Assembly (NCBI GenBank): GCA_045588675.1
Contig: JAZNER010000004.1
Location: 12,498 to 76,497, forward strand
Length of the DNA stretch: 64,000 nucleotides
Direction of reading: 5' to 3'
DNA from: Eubacteriales bacterium
GTDB taxonomy: Bacteria > Bacillota > Clostridia > Oscillospirales > CAG-272
Position numbers and translations under genes: made by a program. The stretch's first letter is position 1; the number at the start of each line of letters is the position of its first letter. Below the pieces are notes generated by a model. That model saw only the letters and a list, made by a program, of their open reading frames with translations. It ran no database searches and had not been told where the DNA came from. This document shows, in pieces, positions 5,626 to 53,500 of this stretch.

Positions 5626-6831
5626 TTAGCCGAGAATTTCGGAAACTACGCCTGAACCAACTGTTCTACCACCCTCACGGATAGCGAAACGAAGACCCTT
5701 TTCACAAGCGATGGGCTTAATAAGCTCAACAGTCATATCAACGTTGTCGCCGGGGCGGCACATTTCAACGCCTGCGGGAAGCTCGATAACGCCTGTAACG
5801 TCAGTTGTTCTGAAGTAGAACTGAGGACGGTAACCAGCGAAGAAGGGCTTTGAACGTCCGCCTTCCTTCTCTGTAAGAACGTAAACCTGTCCTACAAACT
5901 TTGTGTGGGGGTTGATAGAGCCGGGCTTACAAAGAACCTGACCTCTTTCGATCTCGTCCTTAGCGATACCACGGAGAAGTGCACCGATGTTATCACCTGC
6001 TTCAGCCTGAGGAAGAAGCTTGTGGAACATTTCAACACCTGTAACTGTTGTCTGCTTCTTTTCATCAACAAGACCAACAACCTCGATAACATCACCAACC
6101 TTAACTGTACCTCTCTCAACTCTACCTGTAGCAACTGTACCACGGCCGGAGATAGAGAATACGTCCTCTACAGGCATAAGGAATGCGAGGTCGGACATTC
6201 TCTCGGGAGTAGGAATGTAAGAGTCAACTTCAGCCATGAGCTCAAGGATAGGAGCGTACTCGGGAGAGTTGATGTCTGTGCTTGTGGACTCAAGAGCGTC
6301 ACGAGCAGAACCGCGAACGATAGGAAGATCGTCGCCGGGGAAGTCGTAGGAAGAGAGAAGATCTCTGATTTCCATTTCAACGAGATCCAAAAGCTCATCG
6401 TCATCAACGAGATCCTTCTTGTTCATAAATACAACGATTGCAGGAACGCCAACCTGACGAGCGAGAAGCACGTGCTCACGTGTCTGCTGGAGAGGTCCGT
6501 CTGTAGCAGCAACAACAAGGATTGCGCCGTCCATCTGAGCTGCACCTGTAATCATGTTCTTTACATAGTCAGCGTGGCCGGGGCAGTCAACGTGAGCGTA
6601 GTGACGGTTATCTGTCTCGTACTCAACGTGTCTTGTGTTGATTGTGATACCTCTTGCTCTCTCTTCGGGAGCGTTGTCGATCTGGTCGTATGCCATAAAT
6701 TCAACCTTACCGTTTGCAAGACCGAGTGTCTTTGTGATAGCAGCTGTAAGAGTTGTTTTACCATGGTCAACGTGACCGATGGTACCAATGTTAACGTGGG
6801 GCTTTGAACGTTCAAATGTAGCCTTTGCCAT
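5626..6831 (-). CDS. tuf: elongation factor Tu
   Basis: 401 aa: [28 protein letters not shown]..., DCPGHADY. Confidence 0.98.
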
Positions 6832-6897
6832 TTTAAAATCCTCCGTATAATGTTATTTTAATTTAAATTTTTGTTTTTTTATAGAGCCGAACTATAA

Positions 6898-9021
6898 TTA
6901 TTTATTAGTAGCTCTTGCCTTAACGATTTCTTCCTGAATGGACTTAGGCACTTGCTCGAAGTGGCTGGGTTCCATTGAGTAAAGACCGCGTCCCTGTGTT
7001 TTTGAACGCAAGTCGGTAGCATAACCGAACATTTCGGAAAGCGGAACGAACGCAAGGATTTCCTGTGCACCGTTTGTTGCTTCCATCTTCTGAATCTGTC
7101 CACGACGGGAGTTAAAGTCACCAATAACATCACCCATATAGTCGTCGGGAACTATAGTTGTAACCTTCATCATAGGCTCTGTCAAAACAGGGTCAGCCTT
7201 TCTCATAGCTTCCTTAATTGCCATTGAACCTGCAATCTTGAACGCCATTTCAGAGGAGTCAACCTCGTGGTAAGAACCGTCGTAAAGTGTTACCTTAATA
7301 TCAACTACGTTGTAGCCTGCAAGAACACCGGACTGAAGAGCGCCCTGAATACCTGCGTCAACAGCGGGAATGTATTCCTTAGGAATAGCACCGCCCTTAA
7401 CAGCGTCGATAAATTCATAGCCCTTACCTGCTTCGTTAGGCTCAACTGTAATCTTAACGTGACCGTACTGACCTGAACCGCCGGACTGACGCTTGTACTT
7501 ACAATCCTCGTCAACCTTCTTACGGATTGTTTCCTTGTAAGCAACCTGAGGCTTACCGATGTTAGCTTCTACCTTAAATTCACGGAGAAGTCTGTCAACG
7601 ATAATTTCAAGGTGGAGCTCACCCATACCTGCAATGATTGTCTGTCCTGTTTCTTCATCAGTATAAGTTCTGAATGTCGGGTCTTCCTCTGCGAGCTTAG
7701 CAAGAGCAATACCCATCTTTTCCTGACCTGCGCGAGTCTTAGGCTCAATTGCAACACGGATAACAGGCTCCGGGAATTCCATAGACTCAAGTATTACAGG
7801 ATCCTTTTCATCACAGAAGGTATCACCGGTAGAAGTGTTCTTTGTACCGATAACCGCTGCGATATCTCCGCTGTAAACCTCGTCAATATCAGATCTGTCA
7901 TTTGCGTGCATCTGCAAGATACGACCAAGTCTTTCCTTCTTACCCTTTGTAGAGTTAAGAACTGTCTCGCCTGCGTTCAAGTGACCTGAATATACGCGGA
8001 AGAAGCAAAGCTTTCCTACGAATGGGTCAGTTGCAATCTTAAATGCGAGAGCGGAGAAAGGTGCGCTATCATCAGAAGGTCTTTCGCACTCTTCGCCTGT
8101 GTTAACGTCAACGCCCTTGATAGCGGGAACGTCAAGAGGAGAAGGCATATAGTCAACAATAGCGTCGAGAAGCTTCTGAACGCCCTTGTTTCTGTAAGAG
8201 GAACCGCAAACTACGGGAACCATAAGGTTATCAATAGTAGCCTTACGGATAGCAGCCTTCAATTCTTCTTTGGTGATTTCTTCTTCCATAAGGAACTTTT
8301 CCATAAGCTCCTCATTAACAGTAGCAGCTTCTTCTATAAGCTTTGCTCTGTATTCTTCTGCGAGCTCGAGCATATCCTCAGGGATATCCTCTTCTCTCAT
8401 ATCCTTACCGAGCTCATCGTAATAAACCTCAGCCTTCATTTCAATAAGGTCAACGATACCCTTGAAGGTCATTTCCTTACCGATAGGAAGCTGGATCGGA
8501 ACTGCATTAGCCTTAAGTCTGTCCTTCATCATATCAACAACACGATAGAAGTCAGCACCGGTAATGTCCATCTTATTTACATAAGCCATTCTCGGAACTT
8601 TGTACTTGTTAGCTTGTCTCCAGACTGTTTCGGACTGGGGCTCAACGCCGCCCTTTGCGCACAAAACTGTTACTGAACCGTCAAGTACACGGAGAGAACG
8701 CTCAACCTCAACTGTAAAGTCAACGTGACCGGGAGTATCGATGATGTTGATACGGTGGGTATTTGCCTTTACAGCCTCAGGATTGTTGTGGTAATCGGAA
8801 CGAGCCCAATAACAAGTGGTAGCCGCAGAAGTAATGGTAATACCTCTCTCCTGCTCCTGAACCATCCAGTCCATTGTTGCCGCACCCTCGTGAGTTTCAC
8901 CTATCTTGTGAGTTTTACCTGTGTAGAAAAGGATACGCTCAGATGTGGTTGTTTTACCGGCGTCAATGTGAGCCATAATTCCGATATTCCTTGTATGCTC
9001 AAGTGAATATTCTCTAGGCAT
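6898..9021 (-). CDS. fusA: elongation factor G
   Basis: 707 aa: [31 protein letters not shown]. Confidence 0.98.
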
Positions 9022-9039
9022 TTAGTGTTCTCCTTGATA

Positions 9040-9510
9040 TTAATATCTGTAATGAGCAAAAGCCTTGTTTGCTTCTGCCATTCTGTGTGTTTCTTCTCTC
9101 TTCTTGAAAGCTCCGCCCATGCTGTTCTTTGCATCAAGAATTTCTGCTGCGAGCTTTTCTGCCATTGTGCGCTCACTGCGGTTTCTGGAATAAGAGATGA
9201 GCCAACGCAAAGCTAATGTTTGCTGACGCTCAGGTCTAACTTCCATAGGAACCTGGTAGGTTGAACCACCTACACGGCGAGCCTTAACCTCGAGTGCGGG
9301 CTTAAGGTTGTTAAGCGCTTCCTGGAATACTTCGATAGGGCTCTGACCAACCTTTTCTTCTATGATTGCGAATGCATCATAAACGATTGTTTGGGCAACA
9401 CCCTTTTTGCCATCATACATTACATTGTTGATAAGCTTTGTTACAAGCTTGGAACCGTACATAGGATCCGGCAATACGTCTCTTTTGGATATACGACCTC
9501 TTCTTGGCAC
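9040..9510 (-). CDS. rpsG: 30S ribosomal protein S7
   Basis: The sequence (V)[19 protein letters not shown]... is typical of S7. I place the start at GTG 9510, 6 nt after GAAGGAGGGA, rather than at the upstream ATG of the track ORF. Confidence 0.93.
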
Positions 9511-9690
9511 TGTACTTCCCTCCTTCATCAAATTTATAAAATGAAATCATAGGTACTCAAAAGCAATACTTCTGTAGCGTGCGCCTTGTTAACATAAACA
9601 TTAAAATGGATAACAGGACAAGCTTAAATTGCTTTATTATTTACCTTTTTTGTGTCCGCTCAATCTACGCGGACCTCTTTTGCCGAAAAA

Positions 9691-10104
9691 TTACTTCTTC
9701 GGTCTCTTTGCGCCGTATTTGGAACGGCTCTGCTTACGGTTTGCTACACCCTGTGCATCGAGTGTACCACGAATGATGTGATAACGTACACCAGGCAGGT
9801 CACGTACTCTTCCGCCTCTGATAAGAACTACAGAGTGCTCCTGAAGGTTGTGGCCGATACCGGGAATGTAGGTTGTCGCCTCAAGTCCGTTTGTAAGTCT
9901 TACTCTGGCAATCTTACGGAGAGCTGAGTTAGGCTTCTTAGGGCTGGTTGTGGATACCTTTGTGCAAACGCCTCTTTTCTGAGGTGCAGACTGGTCTGTT
10001 GACTTGTTTGTAAGTGTGTTAAGGCCTACCTGAAGAACAGGAGCTTTTGACTTATAAGTCTTGTCTTGACGACCTTGTCTTACGAGCTGGTTAAAGGTTG
10101 GCAT
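9691..10104 (-). CDS. rpsL: 30S ribosomal protein S12
   Basis: 137 aa: [13 protein letters not shown]..., [11 protein letters not shown]. Confidence 0.98.
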
Positions 10105-10222
10105 TCTTCCTGATTATCCTCCTTTTTTAAAGAATTTAATGTTTATATTTACAGACGCATCAAAGAGTATAATGCGTATCTGTTCTGATTTTTGGCGCAA
10201 TTCACCCATATTAGGCGCTCGC

Positions 10223-10251
10223 GCACCACTTTATTATATCATTGACAATAA
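10223..10251 (-). promoter_or_regulatory. consensus sigma-A promoter of the str operon
   Basis: The minus strand reads TTGACA-17 nt-TATAAT (-35 at 10246-10251, -10 at 10223-10228), upstream of rpsL. Confidence 0.7.
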
Positions 10252-10327
10252 AATTTGTCAAGTATCACATAAAATCATTCAAAATTTCTACTTTTTGCAC
10301 AAAAGAACATCAATTTTATTTTAATTA

Positions 10328-10377
10328 TTGTGAAATATCCCCTCGAAACACATCAAAATCAATGTACGAGGGGATAT
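10328..10377 (-). terminator. hairpin downstream of rpoC (putative terminator or attenuator)
   Basis: 11-bp arms ATATCCCCTCG / CGAGGGGATAT. The U-tract is weak. Confidence 0.45.
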
Positions 10378-10425
10378 ATTTGAAATTTTTGTTAATAAGC
10401 TTTGCTACCTATTAATGTGTCTGGC

Positions 10426-13400
10426 TTAAACTGCTTCTATGCCTTCGCCTTCAACTGAATTAAAGCCGTTTACATCGGAGCTGTCTGCACCCTGATTGTT
10501 ATCGGGGGTATTGTCAGGGTCGTTTGAACGAGCCACGTCAATATTATGATAGCAACCCATACCTGTACCTGCGGGAATAAGCTTACCAATAATAACGTTT
10601 TCTTTAAGACCGAGAAGGTTATCGACCTTACCTCTGATAGCTGCCTCTGTAAGAACCTTTGTTGTTTCCTGGAAGGAAGCTGCTGACAGGAATGACTCAG
10701 TCTGCAAGGAAGCCTTTGTAATACCGAGAAGCACAGGAGCGCCTTCGGCAAGCTTGAGGTTCTCTTCTCCGTTGTCAATTCTCGCTTGAATTTTATTGTT
10801 TTCTGCTTCGAAATCAATAACATCAACAAGAGATCCAAGCAAGAGGTCTGTATCGCCGTTTTCGTCAACCTTGATTTTTCTTGTCATCTGACGAGCGATA
10901 ATTTCAATATGCTTATCGTTAACGTTACAAGACTGTGAACGGTAAACCTTCTGGGTTTCCTTGATAACATATTCATAAACGGCATCAAGACCAAGAATAC
11001 GCATAATATCTGCGGGAGATTTGTTACCCTCTGTGAGAGCATCACCAATCTCAACATGGTCGCCGTCGTTAACTGTAAGACGAACACCGTAAGGAACATC
11101 AATCTTCTTATATTCCTGAGTTGTGAAATCGCCCTGGTGGTCGGCGTGGATTGTGAGCACGCTCATACCGGGTATCTCGCCGGGTTGAACGTGAACGATA
11201 CCTGCCTGCTCTGCCATAATAGCAGCCTTCTTGGGCTGTCTTGCCTCGAAGATTTCTTCAACTCTGGGAAGACCCTGAGTAATATCGCTTCCTGCGACAC
11301 CGCCCGAGTGGAAGGTTCTCATCGTAAGCTGTGTACCCGGCTCACCGATAGACTGAGCCGCGATGATACCAACAGCCTCACCGATATTAACAGGCTTACC
11401 TGACGCCAGGTCAGCGCCGTAGCAGTGAGCACAAATACCGTTCTTCGCGTGACACTGAATAACGGTTCTGATATAAACCTTGTCAATGCCTGCCTTAACG
11501 ATCTGGTTAGCCATCTCGTCGGTTATCATTACGTCGTCGTCAACGATAACCTCACCGCTTTCGGGGTGAATAACGGGGCCCATTGTATATCTGCCGACAA
11601 TTCTGTCCTGAAGAGGCTCAAGAACATTCTTATCGTCAAGAATTTCGTTGACCCACGCGCCCTTTGTAGTATCACACTTGTCCTCACGGATAATAACCTC
11701 TTGAGCAACGTCAACAAGACGTCGTGTAAGGTAACCCGAGTCTGCGGTACGGAGAGCTGTATCTGAAAGTGACTTACGAGAGGAACGAGCACCCATAAAG
11801 TACTCTGTGATGTTAAGACCCTCACGGAAGTTTGATTTGATCGGGATTTCCATAGTTTTACCGCTGGTCGAGAACATAAGTCCACGCATACCTGCGAGCT
11901 GACGCATCTGTGTCATAGAACCACGGGCACCTGAGTCTGCCATGATCTTAATTGGGTTGTAGGTTGAGAAGGAAGCATTAAGAGCGCTTGTAACGTTCTC
12001 TGTTGTATCGTTCCAAACCTTGATAACCGAGTTGTATCTCTCCTCTTCGGAAAGCTCACCGCGCATAAAGTGCTTGGAGATCTTGTCAACGTCCTTCTGA
12101 GCCTGCTCGATATAATTCTTCTTCTCTGCGGGAATTGTCATATCGTAAACCGAGATAGAGAAGGAAGCTCTTGTTGAGTACTTATAACCCATAGCCTTGA
12201 TATCATCAAGCATATTTGCACAAACTGCGCTTCCGTGCTTTTTGATACAGTAGTCAATTATCTGACCTAACTGCTTCTTTTTAACGACCATATCGATTTC
12301 AAGCTTGAAATCGTTTTCGGGGTTTGTTCTGTCAACAAATCCGAGGTCCTGAGGCAAGGGCTTGTTGAATATCAAGCGTCCGAGCGTTGTGTCTATAATC
12401 TTTGAACGAACTACGCCGTCAAATTCTTTTTCAATTCTGACCTTGATCTTGGAGTGAAGACCGATAATGCCGTTTTCATACGCCATATTAGCCTCGTCAA
12501 AGTTTCTGAATACCTTACCTTCACCGGGTTCTCCGTCCTTTTCCATTGTAAGATAGTAAGAACCGAGAATCATATCCTGTGTAGGCGTTGCAACTGCACG
12601 GCCGTCCATAGGCTTGAGCAGGTTGTTAGCGGAAAGCATCAGGAAACGAGCTTCAGCCTGTGCCTCTGCAGAGAGCGGTACGTGAACAGGCATCTGGTCA
12701 CCGTCGAAGTCGGCGTTAAACGCTGTACATACAAGAGGGTGAAGCTTGATTGCGCGTCCGTCAACAAGTACAGGCTCAAACGCCTGAATAGAAAGACGGT
12801 GAAGTGTAGGCGCACGGTTAAGAAGCACGGGGTGCTCCTTGATTACGTTTTCGAGTGCGTCCCAAACATCAGGATGTACTCTTTCAATCTTCTTTTGAGC
12901 ATCCTTTACGTTTGTGGCCTTGCCCATTTCGGTAAGTCTTTTTACAACGAAGGGCTTGAAGAGCTCAAGAGCCATTTCGCGAGGAAGACCGCACTGATAA
13001 ATCTTAAGCGAAGGACCAACGACGATAACTGAACGTCCCGAATAGTCAACACGCTTACCAAGAAGGTTCTGACGGAAGCGTCCCTGCTTACCGCGAAGCA
13101 TCTCGGAGAGCGATTTGTATGCTCTGTTTGAAGAGCCTGTAACAGGCTTTCCGCGGCGGCCGTTGTCAATAAGCGCGTCAACTGCCTCCTGAAGCATTCT
13201 CTTTTCGTTTCTGATAACGATATCGGGTGTCTTTATTTCAAGAAGCTTTTTAAGACGGTTGTTTCTGGAGATAACGCGTCTGTAAAGCTCGTTGAGGTCA
13301 CTGGATGCAAATCTTCCGCCGTCAAGCTGGACCATAGGTCTTATATCGGGGGGAAGAACGGGAATAGTATCGAGAATCATCCACTCAAGCTTGTTGCCTG

Positions 13401-14055
13401 ATTTTCTGAATGCCTCGATTACCTCAAGTCTTTTAATAAGTCTGGTTTTCTTCTGACCTGTTGCAGCAAGAAGCTCGTTCTTGATTTCTGCCGCAAGCTC
13501 CTCTACATTCACCTTTGAAAGAAGCTCTTTGATTGCCTGAGCGCCCATTCCTACGCGGAATTCATCCTCGTACATTTCGCGGTATTCCATATACTGCTTC
13601 TCGGAAAGGACTGTGCCGGGAACGAGAGGAGTTTTTCCTCCGTCGATAACTACATTTTCTGCAAAGTAAAGAACCTGTTCAAGCTGCTTTGGCGACATGT
13701 CGAGCACGAGAGCCATTCTTGAGGGGATAGTCTTAAAGTACCAGATGTGAGATACGGGAGCTGCAAGCTCAATATGTCCCATTCTGTCACGTCTGACCTT
13801 TTTGGTCGTAACGTCAACGCCGCACTTCTCGCACTTTCTAACTTCCTTGGAATGAGAATTTTTGTACTTTCCGCACATACAAGCGCCGTCCTTTGTAGGA
13901 CCGAAGATACGCTCGCAGAAAAGACCGCCAATCTCTGCTTTTAGAGTCCTGTAGTTAATAGTCTCAGGCTTTGTAACCTCGCCGTAAGACCACTCTCTAA
14001 TCATTTCCGGAGATGCCAGACCTATTTTTATAGATGAAAATTCATTATGTTGCAC
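10426..14055 (-). CDS. rpoC: RNA polymerase beta' subunit
   Basis: 1209 aa, containing NADFDGDQM and Zn-binding Cys clusters. Confidence 0.98.
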
Positions 14056-40218: not shown

Positions 40219-40250
40219 GAAAGAGCCCATATGGGCTCTTTATTTTGTTT
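40219..40250. terminator. bidirectional terminator
   Basis: AAAGAGCCCATATGGGCTCTTT followed by ATTTTGTTTATTTT, between convergent genes. Confidence 0.7.
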
Positions 40251-43200
40251 ATTTTAATTTTCTTTTGATAAACCCCTCGGAATAGCCCCTGTCAAGAAGT
40301 GAATCAATTATTTTTTTGTATTCCTCGGTGTCCCCTTGACGTAGAGCCTTGCGCGCATCACTTAGTTTTCCGAGTACATATTCGCGCTCGTCCGCAAATG
40401 CATTGTTAACAGTCTTTGCGTCGAAATGCTTCTCGGCCTTCACTTCATCCTTTATATCGTTGTAAGTGCCGTAATCGCCGGATAACACGCCCTCTACAGC
40501 CTCTTGCACACGAGAATCCTTCTCTCGAATTGCTTTTTTAATAGCCGAAGTCGCATCGCTCTCGTTTTTAAACTGAGCTTTGATTTCATCAATTCGATCC
40601 TTATCGTCGTTTATCATAGCCCTGTAAAGCTTGTCAGTTTTAGATATTTTAGTGGAAGAATAATATCCCTCGTTAAATGATAAAAAATCTCCGTTAGCAA
40701 TATCCTGTGCATGCATATAGATAGATCTTCCCGTCCTAATCAAATTGCTCGTTGGAACACCAAACACATTTCCACAGGATATTATAAGATCTTCAAAATC
40801 CTCAAATGTGAGATCATCTTCATCCTTAAAATCAGATGTCAATTTCGAAATCGCTGTAAATACATCATTTATAGCATCAAATGAAATAGATGATACAAAA
40901 TTCTCGCTGTATGCATTTGACCCGGAAGCTATGACTTGTATTATATCAACCGTCTCGCTTCCAAAATGAGGGAATATATATCCCGCAAATTCTTCTAACA
41001 TATCCATTCCCTGAACCTTCAGCCAGCTTTCTGCAGTCAGCTCGTCATCCTCGTCGTCGCGGTATCTATCGGGCTTGTATCTTAATATCGCCATTAAAGA
41101 AGTCACAATGGATCCCCACATAGCAGATGTCATTATAGCGCCTACTACCTTGCCAAGCTTTCGGGCGTTTTCCTTCGTTCCATTCTGCATAAATTCACCC
41201 ACAGCTATACGAAGATTACCTGCATTCTGATAAAGGTCTGTCTTGAACGTTCCAAGCAGCTCTGTACCAATGCCACCGCTTCTTTGGATCTCGGGACGGT
41301 GAAGCACGTCGGTCATACTCTGGGTCGTCTCAACAACCTCATCATAATATTCTGCAGTAGCCTTCAAAAGCTCCTCTCCACGCAGTCCGGTCTTTTTAGC
41401 CACGTCCTGCTTTGCATATTTCCAAAGTGACAACGCCACAAGATAGTCGGTCTGTATCATTCCCTTGCTGCCGCCTTCGGTCAAAAGTTTACCAATCCAC
41501 GTGCGTTTCTTTGCAGTCGAAAGTGACTGCAATTCTGCATCGGATAAGCCTTGCTGCCTCATCCATGCCGTCGCGGTATATTTATCTACCTCTGCGGCAA
41601 TCTTTTTGTGGTTGAACTTGGTATATACAAGATTCGCAAGCATTCGCGCAGGGCCACGGTATTCAATCACCGACGTCGCCGAGAACATAGAACCTATCTG
41701 CTTCAGTCGGACAGATATATTCATAAAGAATGTCGCTCTTATGTAGTTGCTCTTTACCTTCTTGTAAATCCTTGAGAACGCCTCGTGCTTGGTTATTCTC
41801 TCTCCCTGGAGATCCTGCACCGTCTGCTCAATTACCTTTATCGCTCCGTCGCCGGCAGTCGCTTGAATCTGCTCCTTGACAGTTGCTCCCTCTGCAGACT
41901 TAACGTTCCAAACCTTGTTGAAATTTCGTATTGCTACAGCAAGGCCGTGTATTGTTCCTACCTGCTCAATATGTCTGTCAAGCACATTATTCAGTCCGGT
42001 CATAATAAGGGCGTTTGATGATCCTTTTTGTGTCTCCTGAAGCATACCGTATGAACTGATAGTTTTCTGTATATCATACTCTGCCGATATTTCTCTCACG
42101 ATAGAGTTTCTATCCACTTCAAACGGAATATACGCATCCTCGATCGCAAGTATCCTGTGCTTGAGCTGCATATAGGTATCGTTGATTGCAGTCTTGGCAG
42201 TTTCATTGAAGAAGATCCTTGCCGCGTTCATGTAATCCTGAGCCCAACGATCCCCCTCAAGCTCTGACTTAAATTGCGCTATAAGCTTGACTGCCTCAGG
42301 TCCCAGTACCTTGTGCGAATTCTCCGCATCTATGGAACCCTTGAGATTTCCCTTTGAGAGCCTATCGAGATCAGCGAAAACAATTCCACCGTTTTCTACA
42401 TGACGAGTTTTTTTGCTAGCGAGCTCTCTTTCGTAAGAAAGAATTGCCTGCATCTTCATCATCTTGGATATTCCAAATTTGCGGTCCTTCGCATCAATGT
42501 ATATTTTGCCACCGTCAGCTTGATATACGGCATTCTCGTATGCCTCAGAGTTTTTCCCCGTGGTCAGTGCCCCAAACGTTTTTTTAGCCCCCATCACAAA
42601 GAACTGCGCCTTTCTTACACCGACCTCAAAATCCTTGAATAGCTTATACAGAGGAGAATTTCTATTATATCCGCATACCTCAAGAACACGGCGAACAGGC
42701 GAGAGAGACTGATTTGCAATTCCGTCGTTCAACTTTTTAACAGCACCGCGTTTACCGTTCCTGCGCTTATTCTCAATGTCGCGCTGCTCAGCAATAATTG
42801 TATCTCCCGCATCGTAAACGTCAACAGCCTCTTTCTGACCTATAAGCTTTCGAGCATCCTTCAGCGTGCCGTCTATCGAGTGCAGTATGCTATACATTTC
42901 CTCAAGTTCTGCAAGACTCATTTCGCTAAGAGGCTTGTCTTTGAATTTACTCTCAAGCTTTTCAAGGTAATTTGCAATAACCTCGTCAAACTCACCAGCA
43001 TACAAAGGATCCGCGTCGTTCTTGATCTTCTTATATTCCTCACGAAGTCGAGCAAGCTTCTCCCTCGTTTGTACGCGCCTTTGCTGAGCCTTATTCACAC
43101 TACCGTCTGCCTTGTAAAGCTCGGTATCGATATTAATAAGCTCGCACACATCGATCATAGCCTGTGCAAGCGCACCGGGAATATATTTTCTCTCGGTTGG

Positions 43201-46200
43201 GTGCTGCAAAGTCTGCTGATGCTTGTCTTTAAACGCCTTAATCTTCTTGCGTATATCGCCCGAACGCCTGCTCTCAACACCCTTATCCCTTGCCTCACGG
43301 TAACCCTTCCTGATCTCATCCTCGTGCGCTTTAACTCGCTCGCGGTATTCCGCGAGCTTACGTTTACCCTCGGCAACCGCTTTTTTATATGCAGCCTCTT
43401 TCTCACGATCGATAAGCTCTCTGATAGGCTTCATTTCCTCATATTTGAGCAACCAGCTATCCGCGTTATCAATTATCTTTTGCAGCCTGTCTCTGCGCTG
43501 CTCAAGAGTCTTGATTTTTTCGACGTTGCGCTTACCTTTGGAAAAATAAAGGTCTTTAAGCTCACGCTTTGTCTTGTCAAGCTTCGCCTGTTTCGACTCT
43601 ATAGTTGAAAGGTTATCCTTATATTTTCTAAGCTTTTCTTTTGCATCAGGATCGGTCACCTGGCTTTCAATCGCATTTGCAAGAATCAAACGATTAGGTA
43701 CCGCGTCAAGATAAGCCTGCGCCACGTCCTCAGGGCTTCGGAGCGAACGACTTGCTTTCACTTCGCTATCGTCAACACCGTATTTGCTCTTCAAGGCGGA
43801 AAGCACCTCTTCAGTTTCATTGACTAACGTTATTTTTTCGCTATTTCCACTACTTTTTTGAGGACCACTGATGTCGTATTCCCACGCTTGTCCTCGGAAA
43901 TCCCCTTGAATGTTTCGCCCATCCATTCCATTAGTTCGTTTAGTTGTTCCAACGCCGGCAGAGCTGATACTATTCCAGCTATAGCGTCCTTTTCCACGCC
44001 TAAAATGAGCAAACCACGAATCAAATGCTGTTGTGCTTCCGTCAATTCCATTTTCTATCTCCTTTGTGAAGTTATCAATCGCCATTTTATTGCGATTGGT
44101 GATTTTAACTTTTAACAGAATAGTATAATCCGTAAATGATTGATTACTGTATATGTAGTAATAATCTTTTGTAAAAGCAAACCATTCTGATGGCAAGTTG
44201 TCTCTATATTTGCGCAAACGTTCAAAACGATTGTTCTCCATCGTTTCAATTTCTTGGCTTCGTCCACGTTGCGGTAGCCTACTCGCCTTAACCCCGCTAT
44301 TACCCGGTGGAGCTCGCGTGCTTTGCAGGGCCTTCGTTCCACCACGTATATCCTCTTGAATATCCGTCGCCCTCGCTGCTGCATCAGGAATTACCTCAAA
44401 AACGTCGATCCCGGCATAAGCGTCCGCGAAGATCTCTTCAAGAATATACTTTGACGAAACCGTCACCTTGCCGTTCTCGTCGGTAAAATAAAGAGCTGCG
44501 TACATTTTAATCAGTACGTTAAGCTTGCCCTTGTATTTCTTGTTGATCTTCTTTTTCATCCGATTAATACGCGATGGATCAGCTTTGACTATAGCGTGAT
44601 ATTCTTCGTGTAAAGCGATCTGTTCTGGGGAAACAACGCCATCAGCCTGTATCCACATTGTTTTACCGTCTTCAGCTATCAAGCCTCTTGCCACGTCGAC
44701 CTTTCCGTCCTCAACGAACTCCAAAGCTCCCGAAACAAAAACGACCTTTCTGCCTTGTGCCTCCTGATCCTCGGCAATCTGATGCATACCATCGTCGTAT
44801 TCAGATTCAGGTATAACCACGACATTTTCTGTGTCTGTACCATTGCCTATGCCTAAGCTTCTTGAGCTGACTTTCTCTAATCCTTCAGATTCGACAAGAG
44901 CTCCGATTCGAGCTGTGCGAGCCTCTTGAGAGCTTCTGGATCCTTGTTTTTCAGTTTCTCCTGTCCCGCCTTCCACTGCGGATACTTGTCCTTCGGTATC
45001 CTTACCGTCATTCCGTTTGCTGCTTTCGCGTATATGTACGCCTTGCTCATAATTTGCATTCTCCTTATTAATATTTATTTTACCACTCTCGCCGTCCTTT
45101 TGCAATACCTTACCGTCATTTTCTCCCGAAAGATCGGTGACTGCGTTCTTCTTCCTCGCACTATTCAGCGCCTTATCCATGATACCGAGATTATAAGCGT
45201 ACTGCCTCTGCTCGGGTGAGAGCAGCTCCATATTCTTCGCCGCAGATAAAGCCTTGCCACTCTTGCCCTGGTTGTAGAACGCATTGAAAGCCAGCGCCGC
45301 CTCGCCGAGATCTACGCCGCTCGCTATGCTCTCCGACATCGTAACCAGCCCGTGCAACCCCTCGGCGCCCATACCCAGCGTCATGGCGTAAGCCGCCGCC
45401 TGCGCCTGCTTCTGTGATTTGAAGCTCATCAATGCCCGTCTCTCACCGTCAGCCTCGGCAACAACGTCGAATTTGCTGTCAGCATTCTCAGAGATCGAGA
45501 ACGTAGCGCCACTCTGACCCGAAATTTTGCCCGTAGAGCCCTGTTTAGCCTTGGTTGAAGCCATTCCCCCTCTATCGCTCTTGCCTGCCTCTTGGTAGCT
45601 CTGAACCGCCGCTCGAACCTCGCTCACCGCGGCATTCTTGCCAAGCTTTGAGCCGAGCACGTCGTTCAGAGCGTTAAGCGCATACTTGTTAGCCGCCACA
45701 GCTGAAAGCGCCTTGTCGCTCACATCTCTGCCGTACAGTATATCGGTAATCGTATCCGAGAGCTTGCGCACCTCGGTCTTGTTCTCAATGTGCGCCGAAA
45801 GCCTCGACTGCACCGCAGTGCTTGTCTGCGACTCCGACATACTGGAATAAAGCTTGCCCACCGAATACCGGCTCGCACTCTTGCCGCTGTCCAGCTTCGC
45901 CTGCACCTTAGCCGCCTGCTTGTATGCCGCCGTGTTCTGATTCAACTCTAAGCCCTGCGCCGCAAGCGCGCCAACACCACTCTGCCCATTCTGCTTTATA
46001 AAGCTGTTGCCAACCTTCGAGGTGTTGATGGCGGTGTTAATGGTATTAACTCCCGTATCTATCGCCAACTTACCCCCGCCAAATCCGGCAGCAGTAAGCG
46101 CGCCCAAAAGTGAGCTGTAAAGCACCTCGTCCGCGGACGGATCCTCAAAGTCCACACCCGTGGCGATCTCCTTAAACCAACCCTCCAGCACTGTCTGAAG

Positions 46201-47973
46201 TCCTTCCTCAAGCCCTTCGTCAAGCGCACCGCCTGTGATCTTTATTGCACCGTTGGCAACAGCCTTGAGTATGCTCGTACCCTTGTTTCCAAGTTTTATT
46301 GCAACTCTTGATATGGCATTATCGACCTTGGTAGCCGCTTTAGCACCAAGAGTGCTGAATACTCCGTCACCTTTTGATACTCCGGGGATATGACCGAGCA
46401 AATACTCCATGCTACCTTCGGCAACTGCGACCATCACACCGTATGTGGTTGCCTGTTCTTTGCTATATCCAAGGTTGAGCATCTCCACTTTCGCACTACC
46501 GCCTGCCGATGCACCCATAAGAGTTGCACCGACTATCGCACCTGAACCGGGTAGAGCCATATTGGATACTGTCGATGCAAGGATAGAGGGAAGCATATTT
46601 GAAGTGGTGTTTATAATATCATAGTCTACCTGTCCGAGAGAACTGCCTCCGAGCCAATCGGGAAGCTTTGCTCCTGTGTCTGAAAGGTCTTCTCTTATCA
46701 TTCCCGATGCATATTGGGTAACAGAGGTAGGTGTGTAGCCATCGGCAAACCATCCCTTGATGCCTGATTGGAATTGGTCAACTCCTGCCTCAACTGCGAA
46801 CAGATATTGGAGAACAGGCTTGCCGTCATAGGATTCCGCAATATCCTCTGCTTCTCTGTAGTTTAGAGACTCTACAATAGAGTCAATATATTGCTCCGCA
46901 AGATTGGTATTGCCTTCTTCATCTTTTTTGAGATAATATGCAAAGGTCGAAAGCTCCTTATCAGTCATTTGACGGAATACATTTATCTTTTCGGCGTTTT
47001 CCGTGTTGTAATCGCTCAACCCCTTGAGTCCCTCGATGTATCCTGCTATGCCCGATTTAGGTTTTACCATATCCTCTGTATATAATTCTTGTCCCAACCA
47101 ACGCTCATTCAAGACTAAAGTGGCTGCTTTGAGATCATCATATACCGTTAAGCCGTTCCCAATTTTTGTTGTGCCTCCGACATTCTCATACGATATATGA
47201 TTGCCAAGTTCGGCATACTTCTCAAATTCAGGATCATAGTTCTCCGACTCCACATCAGCAACGGAGGCAAGTTCAGCGGCTTTCTGCGCTCTTTCAGCAA
47301 GGGTATAATTTACCTTTTTCTCGGACAGGGCAGATTTAAGTTCAGAGCGATCTCCATACTTTGAGGTCAATTCGGCAAGGCGAGCTTGCAGTGTCGCTCT
47401 TTCTTGCTCGTTGGCATAGCCTCTTGCTCCTGCTTGAATCCCATTGTAGGTTACATCTATACTCCTCTGTAACTCCTCCATCTCGTCAACGATTTGTTGT
47501 AGATTATTTATTTCTTCCTTACCTGCATTGAGGTCGAGGCTCATCCACTCTGCGTACTGTGCCTCGTATGCTTTCTGATCCTCAACAGCCTTCTTGAAGG
47601 CATCCTCTGAATCGTATTTGGAATAGTAATCAGAAGCCAACTTAAAGTTACTCTGCAAGTCGGTAAAGGTCTGTTGCCAAGTAGCATCGTCTTCCTCTTT
47701 TGAACTTGTGCCGAGTGCCTTGCTCAAGTCTCTTAAATTGGTGCTGCTATCAATATAACTATCAATAGCCGTTCTGTATGTTTCAAGGTCTTCGGCATAC
47801 AGATACTCGCCTTTTTGAATTTTCGTGGTGTAGGTGTTTAACAGAGCGGTGGATTCCTCGTTGGCTTTCTGCCAATCATATACCATAGTCGAGTCATACG
47901 ATCTTCGCTCGGTTGCCTTGAAGGAATCGCTACCTACTTCTTTCCTGTTTTTTGTGGCTTTAAATACACTCAT
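40249..47973 (-). CDS. giant 2574-aa multidomain protein with an HExxH (zincin-like) motif; polyvalent-protein-like
   Basis: Uninterrupted 7.7-kb ORF. It has coiled-coil stretches and Gly/Ala-rich hydrophobic segments (ALPGSGAIVGATLMGASAGG, LGALTAAGFGGG, VVGAIMTSAMWGSIVTSLMAIL). HEEYH lies at aa 1122-1126 (nt 44596-44610). I see no NTPase, methylase or relaxase motifs. Confidence 0.8.
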   Translation of the reverse strand: MSVFKATKNRKEVGSDSFKATERRSYDSTMVYDWQKANEESTALLNTYTTKIQKGEYLYAEDLETYRTAIDSYIDSSTNLRDLSKALGTSSKEEDDATWQQTFTDLQSNFKLASDYYSKYDSEDAFKKAVEDQKAYEAQYAEWMSLDLNAGKEEINNLQQIVDEMEELQRSIDVTYNGIQAGARGYANEQERATLQARLAELTSKYGDRSELKSALSEKKVNYTLAERAQKAAELASVADVESENYDPEFEKYAELGNHISYENVGGTTKIGNGLTVYDDLKAATLVLNERWLGQELYTEDMVKPKSGIAGYIEGLKGLSDYNTENAEKINVFRQMTDKELSTFAYYLKKDEEGNTNLAEQYIDSIVESLNYREAEDIAESYDGKPVLQYLFAVEAGVDQFQSGIKGWFADGYTPTSVTQYASGMIREDLSDTGAKLPDWLGGSSLGQVDYDIINTTSNMLPSILASTVSNMALPGSGAIVGATLMGASAGGSAKVEMLNLGYSKEQATTYGVMVAVAEGSMEYLLGHIPGVSKGDGVFSTLGAKAATKVDNAISRVAIKLGNKGTSILKAVANGAIKITGGALDEGLEEGLQTVLEGWFKEIATGVDFEDPSADEVLYSSLLGALTAAGFGGGKLAIDTGVNTINTAINTSKVGNSFIKQNGQSGVGALAAQGLELNQNTAAYKQAAKVQAKLDSGKSASRYSVGKLYSSMSESQTSTAVQSRLSAHIENKTEVRKLSDTITDILYGRDVSDKALSAVAANKYALNALNDVLGSKLGKNAAVSEVRAAVQSYQEAGKSDRGGMASTKAKQGSTGKISGQSGATFSISENADSKFDVVAEADGERRALMSFKSQKQAQAAAYAMTLGMGAEGLHGLVTMSESIASGVDLGEAALAFNAFYNQGKSGKALSAAKNMELLSPEQRQYAYNLGIMDKALNSARKKNAVTDLSGENDGKVLQKDGESGKININKENANYEQGVHIRESSKRNDGKDTEGQVSAVEGGTGETEKQGSRSSQEARTARIGALVESEGLEKVSSRSLGIGNGTDTENVVVIPESEYDDGMHQIAEDQEAQGRKVVFVSGALEFVEDGKVDVARGLIAEDGKTMWIQADGVVSPEQIALHEEYHAIVKADPSRINRMKKKINKKYKGKLNVLIKMYAALYFTDENGKVTVSSKYILEEIFADAYAGIDVFEVIPDAAARATDIQEDIRGGTKALQSTRAPPGNSGVKASRLPQRGRSQEIETMENNRFERLRKYRDNLPSEWFAFTKDYYYIYSNQSFTDYTILLKVKITNRNKMAIDNFTKEIENGIDGSTTAFDSWFAHFRRGKGRYSWNSISSAGVGTTKRTNGMDGRNIQGDFRGQAWEYDISGPQKSSGNSEKITLVNETEEVLSALKSKYGVDDSEVKASRSLRSPEDVAQAYLDAVPNRLILANAIESQVTDPDAKEKLRKYKDNLSTIESKQAKLDKTKRELKDLYFSKGKRNVEKIKTLEQRRDRLQKIIDNADSWLLKYEEMKPIRELIDREKEAAYKKAVAEGKRKLAEYRERVKAHEDEIRKGYREARDKGVESRRSGDIRKKIKAFKDKHQQTLQHPTERKYIPGALAQAMIDVCELINIDTELYKADGSVNKAQQRRVQTREKLARLREEYKKIKNDADPLYAGEFDEVIANYLEKLESKFKDKPLSEMSLAELEEMYSILHSIDGTLKDARKLIGQKEAVDVYDAGDTIIAEQRDIENKRRNGKRGAVKKLNDGIANQSLSPVRRVLEVCGYNRNSPLYKLFKDFEVGVRKAQFFVMGAKKTFGALTTGKNSEAYENAVYQADGGKIYIDAKDRKFGISKMMKMQAILSYERELASKKTRHVENGGIVFADLDRLSKGNLKGSIDAENSHKVLGPEAVKLIAQFKSELEGDRWAQDYMNAARIFFNETAKTAINDTYMQLKHRILAIEDAYIPFEVDRNSIVREISAEYDIQKTISSYGMLQETQKGSSNALIMTGLNNVLDRHIEQVGTIHGLAVAIRNFNKVWNVKSAEGATVKEQIQATAGDGAIKVIEQTVQDLQGERITKHEAFSRIYKKVKSNYIRATFFMNISVRLKQIGSMFSATSVIEYRGPARMLANLVYTKFNHKKIAAEVDKYTATAWMRQQGLSDAELQSLSTAKKRTWIGKLLTEGGSKGMIQTDYLVALSLWKYAKQDVAKKTGLRGEELLKATAEYYDEVVETTQSMTDVLHRPEIQRSGGIGTELLGTFKTDLYQNAGNLRIAVGEFMQNGTKENARKLGKVVGAIMTSAMWGSIVTSLMAILRYKPDRYRDDEDDELTAESWLKVQGMDMLEEFAGYIFPHFGSETVDIIQVIASGSNAYSENFVSSISFDAINDVFTAISKLTSDFKDEDDLTFEDFEDLIISCGNVFGVPTSNLIRTGRSIYMHAQDIANGDFLSFNEGYYSSTKISKTDKLYRAMINDDKDRIDEIKAQFKNESDATSAIKKAIREKDSRVQEAVEGVLSGDYGTYNDIKDEVKAEKHFDAKTVNNAFADEREYVLGKLSDARKALRQGDTEEYKKIIDSLLDRGYSEGFIKRKLK
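43830..44051 (-). CDS. nested +1-frame ORF (73 aa) inside the giant gene
   Basis: An AAAGGAG SD lies 7 nt upstream of the ATG. The product, MELTEAQQHLIRGLLILGVEKDAIAGIVSALPALEQLNELMEWMGETFKGISEDKRGNTTSVVLKKVVEIAKK, looks like a folded helical protein. Confidence 0.4.
   Translation of the reverse strand: MELTEAQQHLIRGLLILGVEKDAIAGIVSALPALEQLNELMEWMGETFKGISEDKRGNTTSVVLKKVVEIAKK
44877..45059 (-). CDS. nested +1-frame ORF (60 aa, or 57 aa from ATG 45050) inside the giant gene
   Basis: TAAGGAG precedes it; the second ATG lies 10 nt after the SD. The product is MSKAYIYAKAANGMTVRIPKDKYPQWKAGQEKLKNKDPEALKRLAQLESELLSNLKD. Confidence 0.35.
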   Translation of the reverse strand: MQIMSKAYIYAKAANGMTVRIPKDKYPQWKAGQEKLKNKDPEALKRLAQLESELLSNLKD

Positions 47974-51660: not shown

Positions 51661-52374
51661 ATGAACAAAGCAATAAACAATTACGACGCTGACAGCATTT
51701 TTCCGTCAAGGCTCCGTTCTCTGATGGATGAAAAAAAGGTTACTCAAGCAGAGCTCGCAAAGATCTGCGGCGTTCAAAGACAGTCGGTGGCGCAGTGGAG
51801 AGAAGGAAACACGCGCCCGGATATTCTTTCTCTTGGCAAGATCGCCGAGTACTTCGGTGTGTCTGCTGATTATCTTATAGGGCTAACGGATAATAAGACT
51901 ACTAACAAGGCAACGCTTGAAACTTGCGCGACATTGGGCATCACTGAAAAATCCGTTGAATTTTTATCGGATCCCAAAAATGAATATTACAGACACGGCA
52001 TTGATGTTCTGATCTCCCAGCATATAGATTCAACTCCGGAAGATCCAGAGATCCTCCCTCTGAGATCTTCTATATTGCAGAGCTTGACCGCCTTGTTTTA
52101 TATGGTGGAATCTGAAAAGGATGTATTTATAAACTACGGAGAGGGAGGGCTTAAATGTCAAGGTGGCAACATTAGCACGGTAAATATTAGAGTGCCTGAG
52201 GTTGTCGGCTTAAATCCCGACGAGAGATACACGATCTCGCTACTTGAAGCGGAGTGTTTGATAGAAAAAAGCTATATCGACGCGGCGCTTTCTGATATTA
52301 TTATTCAAGCAAGCAACCGAAATATCGTAAGAAGATACAAGGAGGCGCAGAAACAGAAAGATGAAACAACGTAA
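51661..52374 (+). CDS. cI-like XRE-family repressor with a C-terminal domain of unknown type
   Basis: 237 aa: LRSLMDEKKVTQAELAKICGVQRQSVAQWREGNTRPD. Its end overlaps the integrase start by 14 nt. Confidence 0.8.
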   Translation: MNKAINNYDADSIFPSRLRSLMDEKKVTQAELAKICGVQRQSVAQWREGNTRPDILSLGKIAEYFGVSADYLIGLTDNKTTNKATLETCATLGITEKSVEFLSDPKNEYYRHGIDVLISQHIDSTPEDPEILPLRSSILQSLTALFYMVESEKDVFINYGEGGLKCQGGNISTVNIRVPEVVGLNPDERYTISLLEAECLIEKSYIDAALSDIIIQASNRNIVRRYKEAQKQKDETT

Positions 52375-53500
52375 CGCCAAGGGTAACGGCTCGATCAGAC
52401 AACGCCCGGACGGAACGTGGGAAGCTCGGTGCTCTATCGACGGTAAGCGGCGCAGCTTCTACGGTGAGCGGCAAGCTGACGCGCTGAAGGCTATGAGAGC
52501 GGCGCAGAAGTCCGGCGACGACGGCACCTATTTTGAGCCGAAAAAGGTGCAGCTCTCACAGTGGCTCGACCTATGGCTTGAGGAATACATCAAGCCGTCA
52601 AGTAAGCCGCTGACATACACCACATATCAAAGCCGAATCGAAACGCACATCAAGCCTGCGCTCGGAAGAATAAAGCTGACCGCTCTGAACGCTACGCACA
52701 TACAAGCGTTTTATAATGACCTGCTGCGTAACAAGCAGCTAAGCCCTAAGACAATAAAGAACGTCCACGGCATACTCCACAAAGCACTCGATCAAGCTCT
52801 CAAGCTCCGCTACATAGGACTGAACGCCGCCGACGCGTGCACGTTGCCGAGAGTAGAGAAAAAGGAGATCAGACCGCTCTCTGAGGGCGAGATCGCCGCA
52901 TTTCTGGAAGTCATACAAGAGGATTCTCTGCGAGATCTGTTTACCGTTGCACTGTTCACCGGCATGAGAGAGGGCGAGATTTGCGGCCTACCGTGGAGCG
53001 CGGTGGATTTCAGAAAGGGCACGATCACCGTCAAGCAACAGCTCTGTAAGGAAAAAATAAAAGGTGGTAAGCATTACATAGCACCCACCAAAAACGACAA
53101 ATCAAGAACGCTAACCCCTGCGCCCTTTGTGCTTGAGATCTTGCGAAGGACCAAACGCGAACAGCTCGGCGCGGCTCTTGCATTCGGGCCCACTTGGACA
53201 AATGAGTTTGATCTTGTATTCACGGACAACGTCGGGCACTTCATCGTGCCTCAGACCGCACTAAAACACTTTAAGGCTGCAGCTGAAAAGATAGGCCGTC
53301 CGGATGCGCGCTTTCACGATCTGCGCCACACATACGCCGTGACTGCTCTCCAAGAGGGCGACGACGTGAAGACGGTGCAGCAGAATCTCGGACACGCTAC
53401 GGCCAGCTTTACCCTCGACGTTTACGGCCACGTTTCGGAGAAAATGAAGAAGGAGAGCGCGGCGCGTATGCAGTCTTACTTTGAAAAAATCAAAGCGTAA
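52361..53500 (+). CDS. int: tyrosine recombinase (phage integrase family)
   Basis: 379 aa. SAM-like N-terminal domain, then TGMREGE (R), HDLRHT (H-x-x-R) and LGHATASFTLDVYGH (catalytic Y). Confidence 0.93.
   Translation: MKQRNAKGNGSIRQRPDGTWEARCSIDGKRRSFYGERQADALKAMRAAQKSGDDGTYFEPKKVQLSQWLDLWLEEYIKPSSKPLTYTTYQSRIETHIKPALGRIKLTALNATHIQAFYNDLLRNKQLSPKTIKNVHGILHKALDQALKLRYIGLNAADACTLPRVEKKEIRPLSEGEIAAFLEVIQEDSLRDLFTVALFTGMREGEICGLPWSAVDFRKGTITVKQQLCKEKIKGGKHYIAPTKNDKSRTLTPAPFVLEILRRTKREQLGAALAFGPTWTNEFDLVFTDNVGHFIVPQTALKHFKAAAEKIGRPDARFHDLRHTYAVTALQEGDDVKTVQQNLGHATASFTLDVYGHVSEKMKKESAARMQSYFEKIKA

Follow-up and report, generated by a model that had tools for sequence, protein, structure and literature searches.

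A small gene nested out of frame (+1) in a giant prophage gene of the polyvalent type: a probable case of same-strand dual coding

The window analyzed here is a stretch of 64,000 nucleotides (nt) of contig JAZNER010000004.1 (positions 12,498 to 76,497, assembly GCA_045588675.1), from a Clostridia metagenome-assembled genome (MAG). It harbors an integrated, phage-like element, at positions ~32800-53500, that carries a giant open reading frame (ORF) of the polyvalent type. Embedded in this ORF, on the same strand and in its +1 frame, is an ORF of 73 amino acids (aa), termed s2. It is highly probable that s2 is a genuine small gene and that the overlap represents selected dual coding. A second embedded gene, s1, lies upstream of it in the same giant ORF. 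The features on which the description of s2 relies are the following:

40249..47973, minus strand: giant ORF, polyvalent-type prophage protein, 2574 aa (2578 open codons)
43830..44051, minus strand: s2, embedded small gene, 73 aa, +1 frame of the giant ORF
44059..44064, minus strand: Shine-Dalgarno sequence AAGGAG of s2, 7 nt before the ATG at 44051
44055..44057, minus strand: TAG that shuts the small frame one codon ahead of the s2 ATG
44053..44241, minus strand: MENNRF domain, aa 1245-1308, encoded in the giant frame only, directly before s2

A nested gene with its own start signals

An earlier note on this DNA, made from the sequence alone, had proposed a nested +1-frame gene with its own Shine-Dalgarno sequence, leaving its strand unstated. 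Both s2 and the giant ORF are on the minus strand, and the offset of their starts, (47973-44051) mod 3 = 1, places s2 in the +1 frame, wholly inside the giant ORF with which it shares 222 bases. The proposal is borne out: the ORF, the AAGGAG and the upstream TAG are all present, and homologues have been found. The translation given in the note (MELTEAQQHLIRGLL...EIAKK) is exact, as is the giant-frame segment quoted for the same nucleotides (aa 1308-1382, NGIDGSTTAFDSWFAHFRRGKGRYSWNSISSAG...). The Shine-Dalgarno bases belong to the last codons of the MENNRF domain and are read by the giant frame as part of ...TKEIENG. A GGAGG/AGGAG motif at -12..-7 and the ATG are conserved among the embedded copies examined. 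In those checked, an in-frame stop is found 1-14 codons upstream of the ATG, the exception being one of four copies in a relative (copy c of L004, see below), whose start is unclear; each also ends in a stop of the small frame. A promoter and terminator scan around the overlaps returned counts no higher than in shuffled sequence, with no terminator after s1 or s2.

The giant frame across s2 was described in the earlier note as linker-like, and its low-complexity composition agrees with this view. It is a G/S/R/N-rich linker including stretches such as GIDGSTTAFDSWFAHFR, in which G+S+R+N amount to 0.44 and hydrophobic residues to 0.27, as compared to 0.25 and 0.39 in the whole giant protein. 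The same bias is seen in the overlap linkers of the giant ORFs generally, whose G+S+R+N content is 0.39-0.54 where that of the complete giant proteins is 0.25. As had been noticed, purines prevail at the first codon positions of the s2 overlap in either frame, with shares of 0.69 (small frame) and 0.72 (giant frame).

Recurrence in other giant ORFs

Seven distinct giant ORFs, that of the window included, share this layout of a small gene placed +1 to an open enclosing frame. The others are listed below by locus:

L004, Candidatus Aphodoplasma MAG, 9964-13461, plus strand: 1181 codons open, 1165-aa ORF, four paralogous copies (a-d)
L004, nested ORFs at 10001-10201, 10514-10756, 12287-12589 and 12860-13084: all +1, each over a low-complexity stretch
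L007, contig with capsid genes, 6658-11655, plus strand: giant ORF of at least 1666 codons (at least 1665 aa), embedded copy
L016, IMG/VR: 3656 codons, 3652 aa, both s1-like and s2-like genes
L017: 2756 codons, 2746 aa, embedded s2-like gene
L031: 1206 codons, embedded family member
L032/33: 2562 codons, embedded family member

The small gene directly follows the MENNRF domain in the window, L007, L016, L017, L031 and L032/33. When IMG/VR was scanned with the MENNRF domain alone, an embedded family member was present right after the domain at all viral loci (4/4).

Some of these loci display further features. The L004 ORF begins inside a truncated MENNRF domain, adjoining a P-type ATPase gene, and may therefore be a fragment. 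L031 contains a second, weaker family match (10632-10871, E = 3.8e-5) ~200 nt downstream and in the same +1 frame, and the pair may be tandem embedded genes. Relic fragments of giant ORFs occur at fixed chromosomal sites, such as between rpmB and an FMN-reductase gene (L008-L013, e.g. L009 2234-2680, and L019-L027, e.g. L019 7855-8607). In these relics, the small gene is still intact and 120-294 codons of the enclosing frame remain open; the L019 type is a 250-aa ORF made of the MENNRF domain and the small gene. A 75-aa member at L006 (9781-10287) is seemingly free-standing, yet its -1 frame has 0 stops versus 6.1 expected (P = 5e-4, by the stop test described below). The ORF of 168 aa that encloses this member has an upstream part similar to the end of the MENNRF domain, and the locus is probably another relic.

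Selection on the two frames

The length of s2 alone is within chance. The giant ORF contains two more +1 ORFs, of 83 and 90 aa, that look like junk and were rejected as embedded genes: the first (43155-43406) for its junk-like sequence, the second (44112-44384) for the same reason and because it shares bases with the MENNRF domain, whose substitutions are those expected of the giant frame. With a sliding codon-usage score, the +1 frame beats frame 0 consistently only at giant-protein aa 971-1031 and 1311-1381. Training on host genes flags two further +1 stretches (aa 1211-1281), thereby mildly favoring +1 over part of the rejected ORF 44112-44384, but self-training flags neither. The same scan flags analogous places in the giant ORFs of L016 and L017, and no place in those of L007 and L004.

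Differences between homologues, counted in the small frame, are most frequent at position 3, then 1, then 2; between the window and copy a of L004 they number 19/10/30 at positions 1/2/3. In the MENNRF domain (63 codons), differences at giant-frame positions 1/2/3 are 195/164/379, as compared to 349/235/213 in the overlapped part that follows, i.e. the wobble position has moved into the small frame. This change of frame takes place exactly at the s2 start. The pattern indicates that the embedded frame is under purifying selection. The earlier note had held that normal synonymous variation over the overlap, or a lack of conservation of the alternate frame and its Shine-Dalgarno sequence and ATG, would speak against a gene. 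Neither is observed: differences switch to the small-frame wobble, and the Shine-Dalgarno sequence and ATG are kept in relatives.

The openness of the giant frame was assessed by a stop test in which the amino acids of the small protein are fixed, synonymous codons are drawn from local codon usage, and stops are counted in the giant frame. The results are as follows, the last two lines being free-standing relatives of s2:

Window s2: 0 stops observed, 5.5 expected, P = 7e-4 (1e-4 with host-gene usage)
Window s1: 0 observed, 5.5 expected, P = 5.5e-4
L004 copies a-d: 0 observed, 5.5 expected for copy a, P = 5e-5 to 7e-4
L016 s2: 0 observed, 3.4 expected, P = 0.013
L016 s1: 0 observed, 4.4 expected, P = 0.004
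L007 s2: 0 observed, 2.9 expected, P = 0.03
L017 s2: 0 observed, 1.7 expected, P = 0.15
L005, free-standing: 6 observed, 5.5 expected, fits the null
L014, free-standing: 2 observed, 3.0 expected, fits the null

Embedded copies thus have 0 stops versus 1.7-6.2 expected, with P values of 5e-5 to 1e-3 in the AT-richer genomes, and the giant frame across s2 does not appear to be open by accident. Stops of the enclosing frame all need a T at the wobble position of the small gene and are therefore avoidable synonymously. In s2, none of the 20 junctions before a codon starting with AA, AG or GA follows a T-ending codon, as compared to 11 of the 53 other junctions. The +1 arrangement would be the cheapest geometry for an embedded gene, and is plausibly favored for that reason.

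The s2 protein family

Two close homologues of s2 (78-81% identity) have been called as separate genes of 72-75 aa. A profile search with the s2 family returned 60 clusters, all of 39-88 aa, and an exhaustive search covering 1.84 billion representatives gave 672 at E<=1e-3 and 94 at E<=1e-10, nearly all 55-100 aa long. The earlier note had attached weight to stand-alone homologues of the 73-aa protein, and these exist, as free-standing chromosomal genes at L005, between a pyruvate-oxidoreductase-type gene and recG, and at L014/L015. The free-standing homologues begin at the same Met as s2. AlphaFold2, provided with 59 sequences, models s2 as four helices (pLDDT 89.9, pTM 0.79), a prediction consistent with the earlier impression of a folded helical protein. 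As judged from these comparisons, s2 is a genuine gene belonging to a widespread, unnamed family of small proteins.

The s2 product has no significant match in any named family (Pfam, NCBIfam, PHROG), in PDB sequences or, among the fold libraries covered, to a solved fold. A TAL-effector match in the PDB sequence profile search contained no significant stretch and was treated as compositional. A tblastn search of the s2 protein against annotated phage and plasmid collections gave no match, and a first scan of viral contigs with close s2 patterns found nothing; the 59-sequence alignment is too diverse to serve pattern scanning. At L014 (6619-7536) and L015 (92-1009), a chromosomal tandem array comprises four small genes, three of which match the family profile; the enclosing frame is closed for two of these three family members.

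The giant ORF and its second embedded gene

From the N- to the C-terminus, the giant protein is formed by an N-module, a linker over s1, an HExxH peptidase-like module, the MENNRF domain, a linker over s2 and a C-module corresponding to PHROG 22978. The features of its central part, besides those listed above, are the following:

44877..45050, minus strand: s1, second embedded gene, 57 aa from MSKAY, +1 frame of the giant ORF
45061-45066, minus strand: Shine-Dalgarno sequence AAGGAG of s1
44596..44610, minus strand: HEEYH (HExxH) zinc-peptidase-like motif, aa 1122-1126, middle module

The s1 product (MSKAYIYAKAANGMTVRIPKDKYPQWK...), which is 60 aa long if started at the upstream ATG at 45059, is unrelated to s2. 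As for s2, the giant frame over it (aa ~972-1032) is a low-complexity linker. AlphaFold2 models s1 as a β-hairpin and two helices (pLDDT 76). Its homologues are P0203, P0204 and those at L001 (24-209) and L016 (9017-9193), with a further one in L028. In this last locus, the region corresponding to s1 and the peptidase is divided among separate genes, with a separate ATG for the peptidase module and a short ORF of 82 codons in the frame over s1. Separate and fused states thus both occur in nature. The earlier suggestion of three genes fused across two small ones gains from both observations, s1 being a second embedded gene and L028 having the pieces separate.

The window giant protein has no significant Pfam match, and its peptidase activity is accordingly deduced from the HExxH motif only. 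Its alignment with the L016 protein, at 40% identity over 1319 aa, spans both overlaps and pairs its HEEYH with HELGH of L016. PF18760 (ART-PolyVal) is matched by L016 at 2e-13 and by L017 at 6e-17, which places these ORFs among the polyvalent proteins (PMC5512222). The window ORF likewise codes for a very large multi-domain prophage protein and has homologous giant ORFs on viral contigs; as to polyvalent signature domains, it displays the HExxH motif alone, PF18760 being found in its homologues L016 and L017. A search with the C-module in the annotated phage and plasmid collections gave one weak match, in an unannotated fragment. The segment of the giant ORF that encodes its K/E-rich coiled coil also contains an antisense ORF of 242 aa (42880-43608, plus strand), rich in Leu and Phe, which has the appearance of a compositional shadow.

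Proposed mechanism and alternative explanations

In the mechanism that we propose, the s2 protein would be made by internal initiation at its own Shine-Dalgarno sequence and ATG, and ribosomes translating the giant ORF would read the same 222 bases one nucleotide earlier (-1 relative to s2). The giant-frame product of this segment would be a linker, rich in G/S/R/N and probably flexible, joining the MENNRF domain and the C-terminal module. Selection would act on the amino-acid sequence of the small protein, the giant frame being selected essentially only for its lack of stops. The latter would be achieved by codon choice, with no T-ending codon used before a codon starting with AA, AG or GA. 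The linker may act as a spacer, or else it may be where the HExxH module processes the giant protein; the position of the HEEYH module beside the linkers makes cleavage there a reasonable idea. By its location, the small protein may act with the neighboring module as a partner, chaperone or inhibitor.

Of the explanations put forward in the earlier note, the read-through of a small gene by the giant ORF in another frame fits best, given a family with free-standing members and the coding signature in the small frame. True dual coding by overprinting also finds support, as both frames are kept open, with amino-acid constraint in the small one only. Several points weigh against genuine dual coding, or temper it. 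The translation of both products is inferred from the sequence. Scans of s2 and 59 family members against Pfam, PHROG and NCBIfam returned nothing significant. No capsid or tail genes were detected in the window element, and this copy could belong to a decaying prophage. Taken by itself, the absence of stops from the giant frame reaches only weak significance in relatives of higher GC content (P = 0.03 for L007, 0.15 for L017). Finally, the copies following the MENNRF domain share ancestry and are not fully independent trials; their independence relies on divergence (39-60% identity), on the divergent paralogues b-d of L004 and on the unrelated s1.

The main competitor concerns the origin of the small gene, which, together with ~24 nt upstream, might be a selfish or recombination-borne module inserted at domain junctions and tolerated where one frame stays open, much as palindromic elements are in Rickettsia genes; dual coding would then be a by-product and not the result of an old fusion. 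This mobile cassette is unlikely, although a number of observations lend themselves to it. Homology among the window, L001 and L002 starts ~24 nt before the ATG and stops at the stop codon, with different flanks. L004 has four paralogous copies at different junctions of one ORF, and fragments with the small gene are found at unrelated chromosomal sites, e.g. beside rpmB. Furthermore, a flanking-repeat test for an insertion element revealed a 56-nt direct repeat around the L002 copy (120-175 and 431-486, 96% identical) that duplicates the 3' end of a host gene (...ASQDLDFFDYLNENAG...) and looks like an insertion or recombination scar. The same test found no direct or inverted repeats flanking the window copy, however, and the small-gene module encodes no recombinase or nuclease. 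The phage-type giant ORFs, moreover, all place the gene directly after the same MENNRF domain. Between the window and L016, the s2 proteins share 39% identity and the giant proteins 40%; the divergence of s2 thus tracks that of its host ORF, which fits vertical co-inheritance. A possible mobile origin would in any case be compatible with dual coding, from which it differs in origin only.

Two other explanations were weighed. The genes for the N-module, the peptidase module and the C-module might have lost their stops, the alternate frame being open by chance and the 2574-aa product a non-functional artefact of a decaying prophage. The separate pieces of L028, the lack of visible capsid genes in the window element and the plainly junk character of the other long +1 ORFs are all in keeping with such a read-through. 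It is nevertheless very improbable: in the window, each overlap would be free of stops with a probability of ~1e-3, the frame is also open in divergent giant ORFs, including those of viral-collection or capsid-carrying contigs (L007, L016, L032), and free-standing copies do gather the expected stops. The helical segment might also be a domain of the giant protein, reached by a programmed +1 frameshift after aa 1307, as the earlier note had suggested, or through two compensating assembly indels, since the small-frame sequence resembles a folded domain more than the giant-frame sequence does. This is the least credible explanation, and is refuted for practical purposes. A frameshift product is ruled out by the TAG one codon before the s2 ATG, by the stops 1-14 codons upstream in the copies checked (except copy c of L004) and at each end, and by the conserved Shine-Dalgarno sequence and ATG together with the shared Met of the free-standing homologues. 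Visual inspection of ...GAA AAT GGA..., where no formal motif search was made, reveals no slippery motif, and the s2 boundaries are the same in independent assemblies from different samples.

Selected dual coding of a genuine small gene remains our preferred reading. A broader extension of it is tentative and, on present evidence, rather doubtful: polyvalent proteins of gut Clostridia phages would be systematically built by -1 read-through of small accessory genes, so that linkers double as genes (as many as four in one ORF, belonging to two or more unrelated families). Each small protein would then be the dedicated partner of the module beside it, whether as chaperone, inhibitor or immunity-like factor; s2, for instance, would be matched with the preceding MENNRF domain in full-length giant ORFs and L019-type relics. 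If true, systematic read-through would offer a general way of joining operon genes into a single deliverable polyprotein while keeping the genes between them.

The element and its annotation

Besides the giant ORF, the window element carries genes for an integrase (52361-53500), a cI-like repressor, a DUF6291/replication initiator, a DnaC-like loader, RusA, a TerS-like helix-turn-helix protein and two DNA methyltransferases. The giant ORF is placed between the phage replication genes and the TerS-like gene, with the integrase nearby. As no capsid genes are seen, the element may be a prophage remnant or a satellite.

Gene callers treat the embedded layout inconsistently. In the source genome, the giant ORF is called as one gene and both s1 and s2 are missed. 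In L007, the small gene is called together with a 1073-aa antisense ORF (6460-9681, minus strand), and the plus-strand giant ORF is dropped, a miscall indicating that the layout derails automatic annotation.

If both frames are translated, few comparative examples of long dual coding on one strand of a dsDNA phage or prophage would be as clear as this one, which recurs across divergent genomes and several times within one gene. Its polarity would be unusual: a large ORF extends over conserved small genes, while new small ORFs are usually pictured as originating within older genes. It would also suggest how multi-domain polyvalent proteins assemble from operons, and would tie a widespread, unnamed small-protein family (672 representative clusters) to polyvalent proteins.

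Comparison with known systems

Rickettsia palindromic elements are short in-frame mobile insertions, present in several gene contexts and read through within host proteins. The window copy differs from them by the lack of terminal repeats or a palindrome, and by a module that has its own conserved gene in another frame.

Classical overprinting is known from small viruses, as in phage φX174, where B lies in A and E in D (reviewed in PMC8227390). The resemblance resides in two proteins arising from one stretch in different frames, one product being compositionally odd and probably disordered. The polarity looks reversed here: a folded, widespread protein is embedded and the low-complexity frame belongs to the large host gene, as if the latter had grown over a small gene. 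Nor is the genome under any obvious size pressure.

Polyvalent proteins of phages and conjugative elements were described by Iyer, Burroughs, Anand, de Souza and Aravind in 2017, who proposed that metallopeptidase modules cut them into functional units (PMC5512222). The window ORF resembles them as a giant multi-domain phage/prophage protein with an HExxH metallopeptidase-type module and relatives possessing ART-PolyVal (PF18760). Embedded junction genes are not part of the concept, however, and the paper uses neither "overlapping" nor "frameshift". No description of embedded genes in polyvalent proteins was found in the literature searched, the coverage of which is incomplete and does not amount to proof of absence.

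The closest known architecture is that of lambda Rz/Rz1, to which there is no homology. Rz1 lies within Rz, in the +1 frame, over a part of Rz that is mutationally silent (PMC5295617). Like Rz1, s2 is wholly inside a larger gene of the same strand, in the +1 frame and with its own start; in both systems the overlap falls in a silent or linker-like part of the host gene, and in Rz/Rz1 no stretch is thereby made to serve two functional sequences. In the giant ORF the overlapped stretch is of low complexity, and amino-acid constraint is confined to the small frame. There is no sequence or functional relation between the two, and the giant host gene does not encode a membrane protein. The s2 product has no Cys, no lipobox and no signal peptide or hydrophobic N-terminal signal, and its host is of the Gram-positive-type Clostridia; it is therefore not a spanin. 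The host genes also differ: here they are multi-domain, extend over 2.5-3.6 thousand codons and contain two to four embedded genes, placed where domains join. The s2 family also has free-standing members, whereas Rz1 is not known other than as the partner of Rz. Finally, the embedded arrangement is regular in the giant ORFs found, and not just one layout among alternatives.

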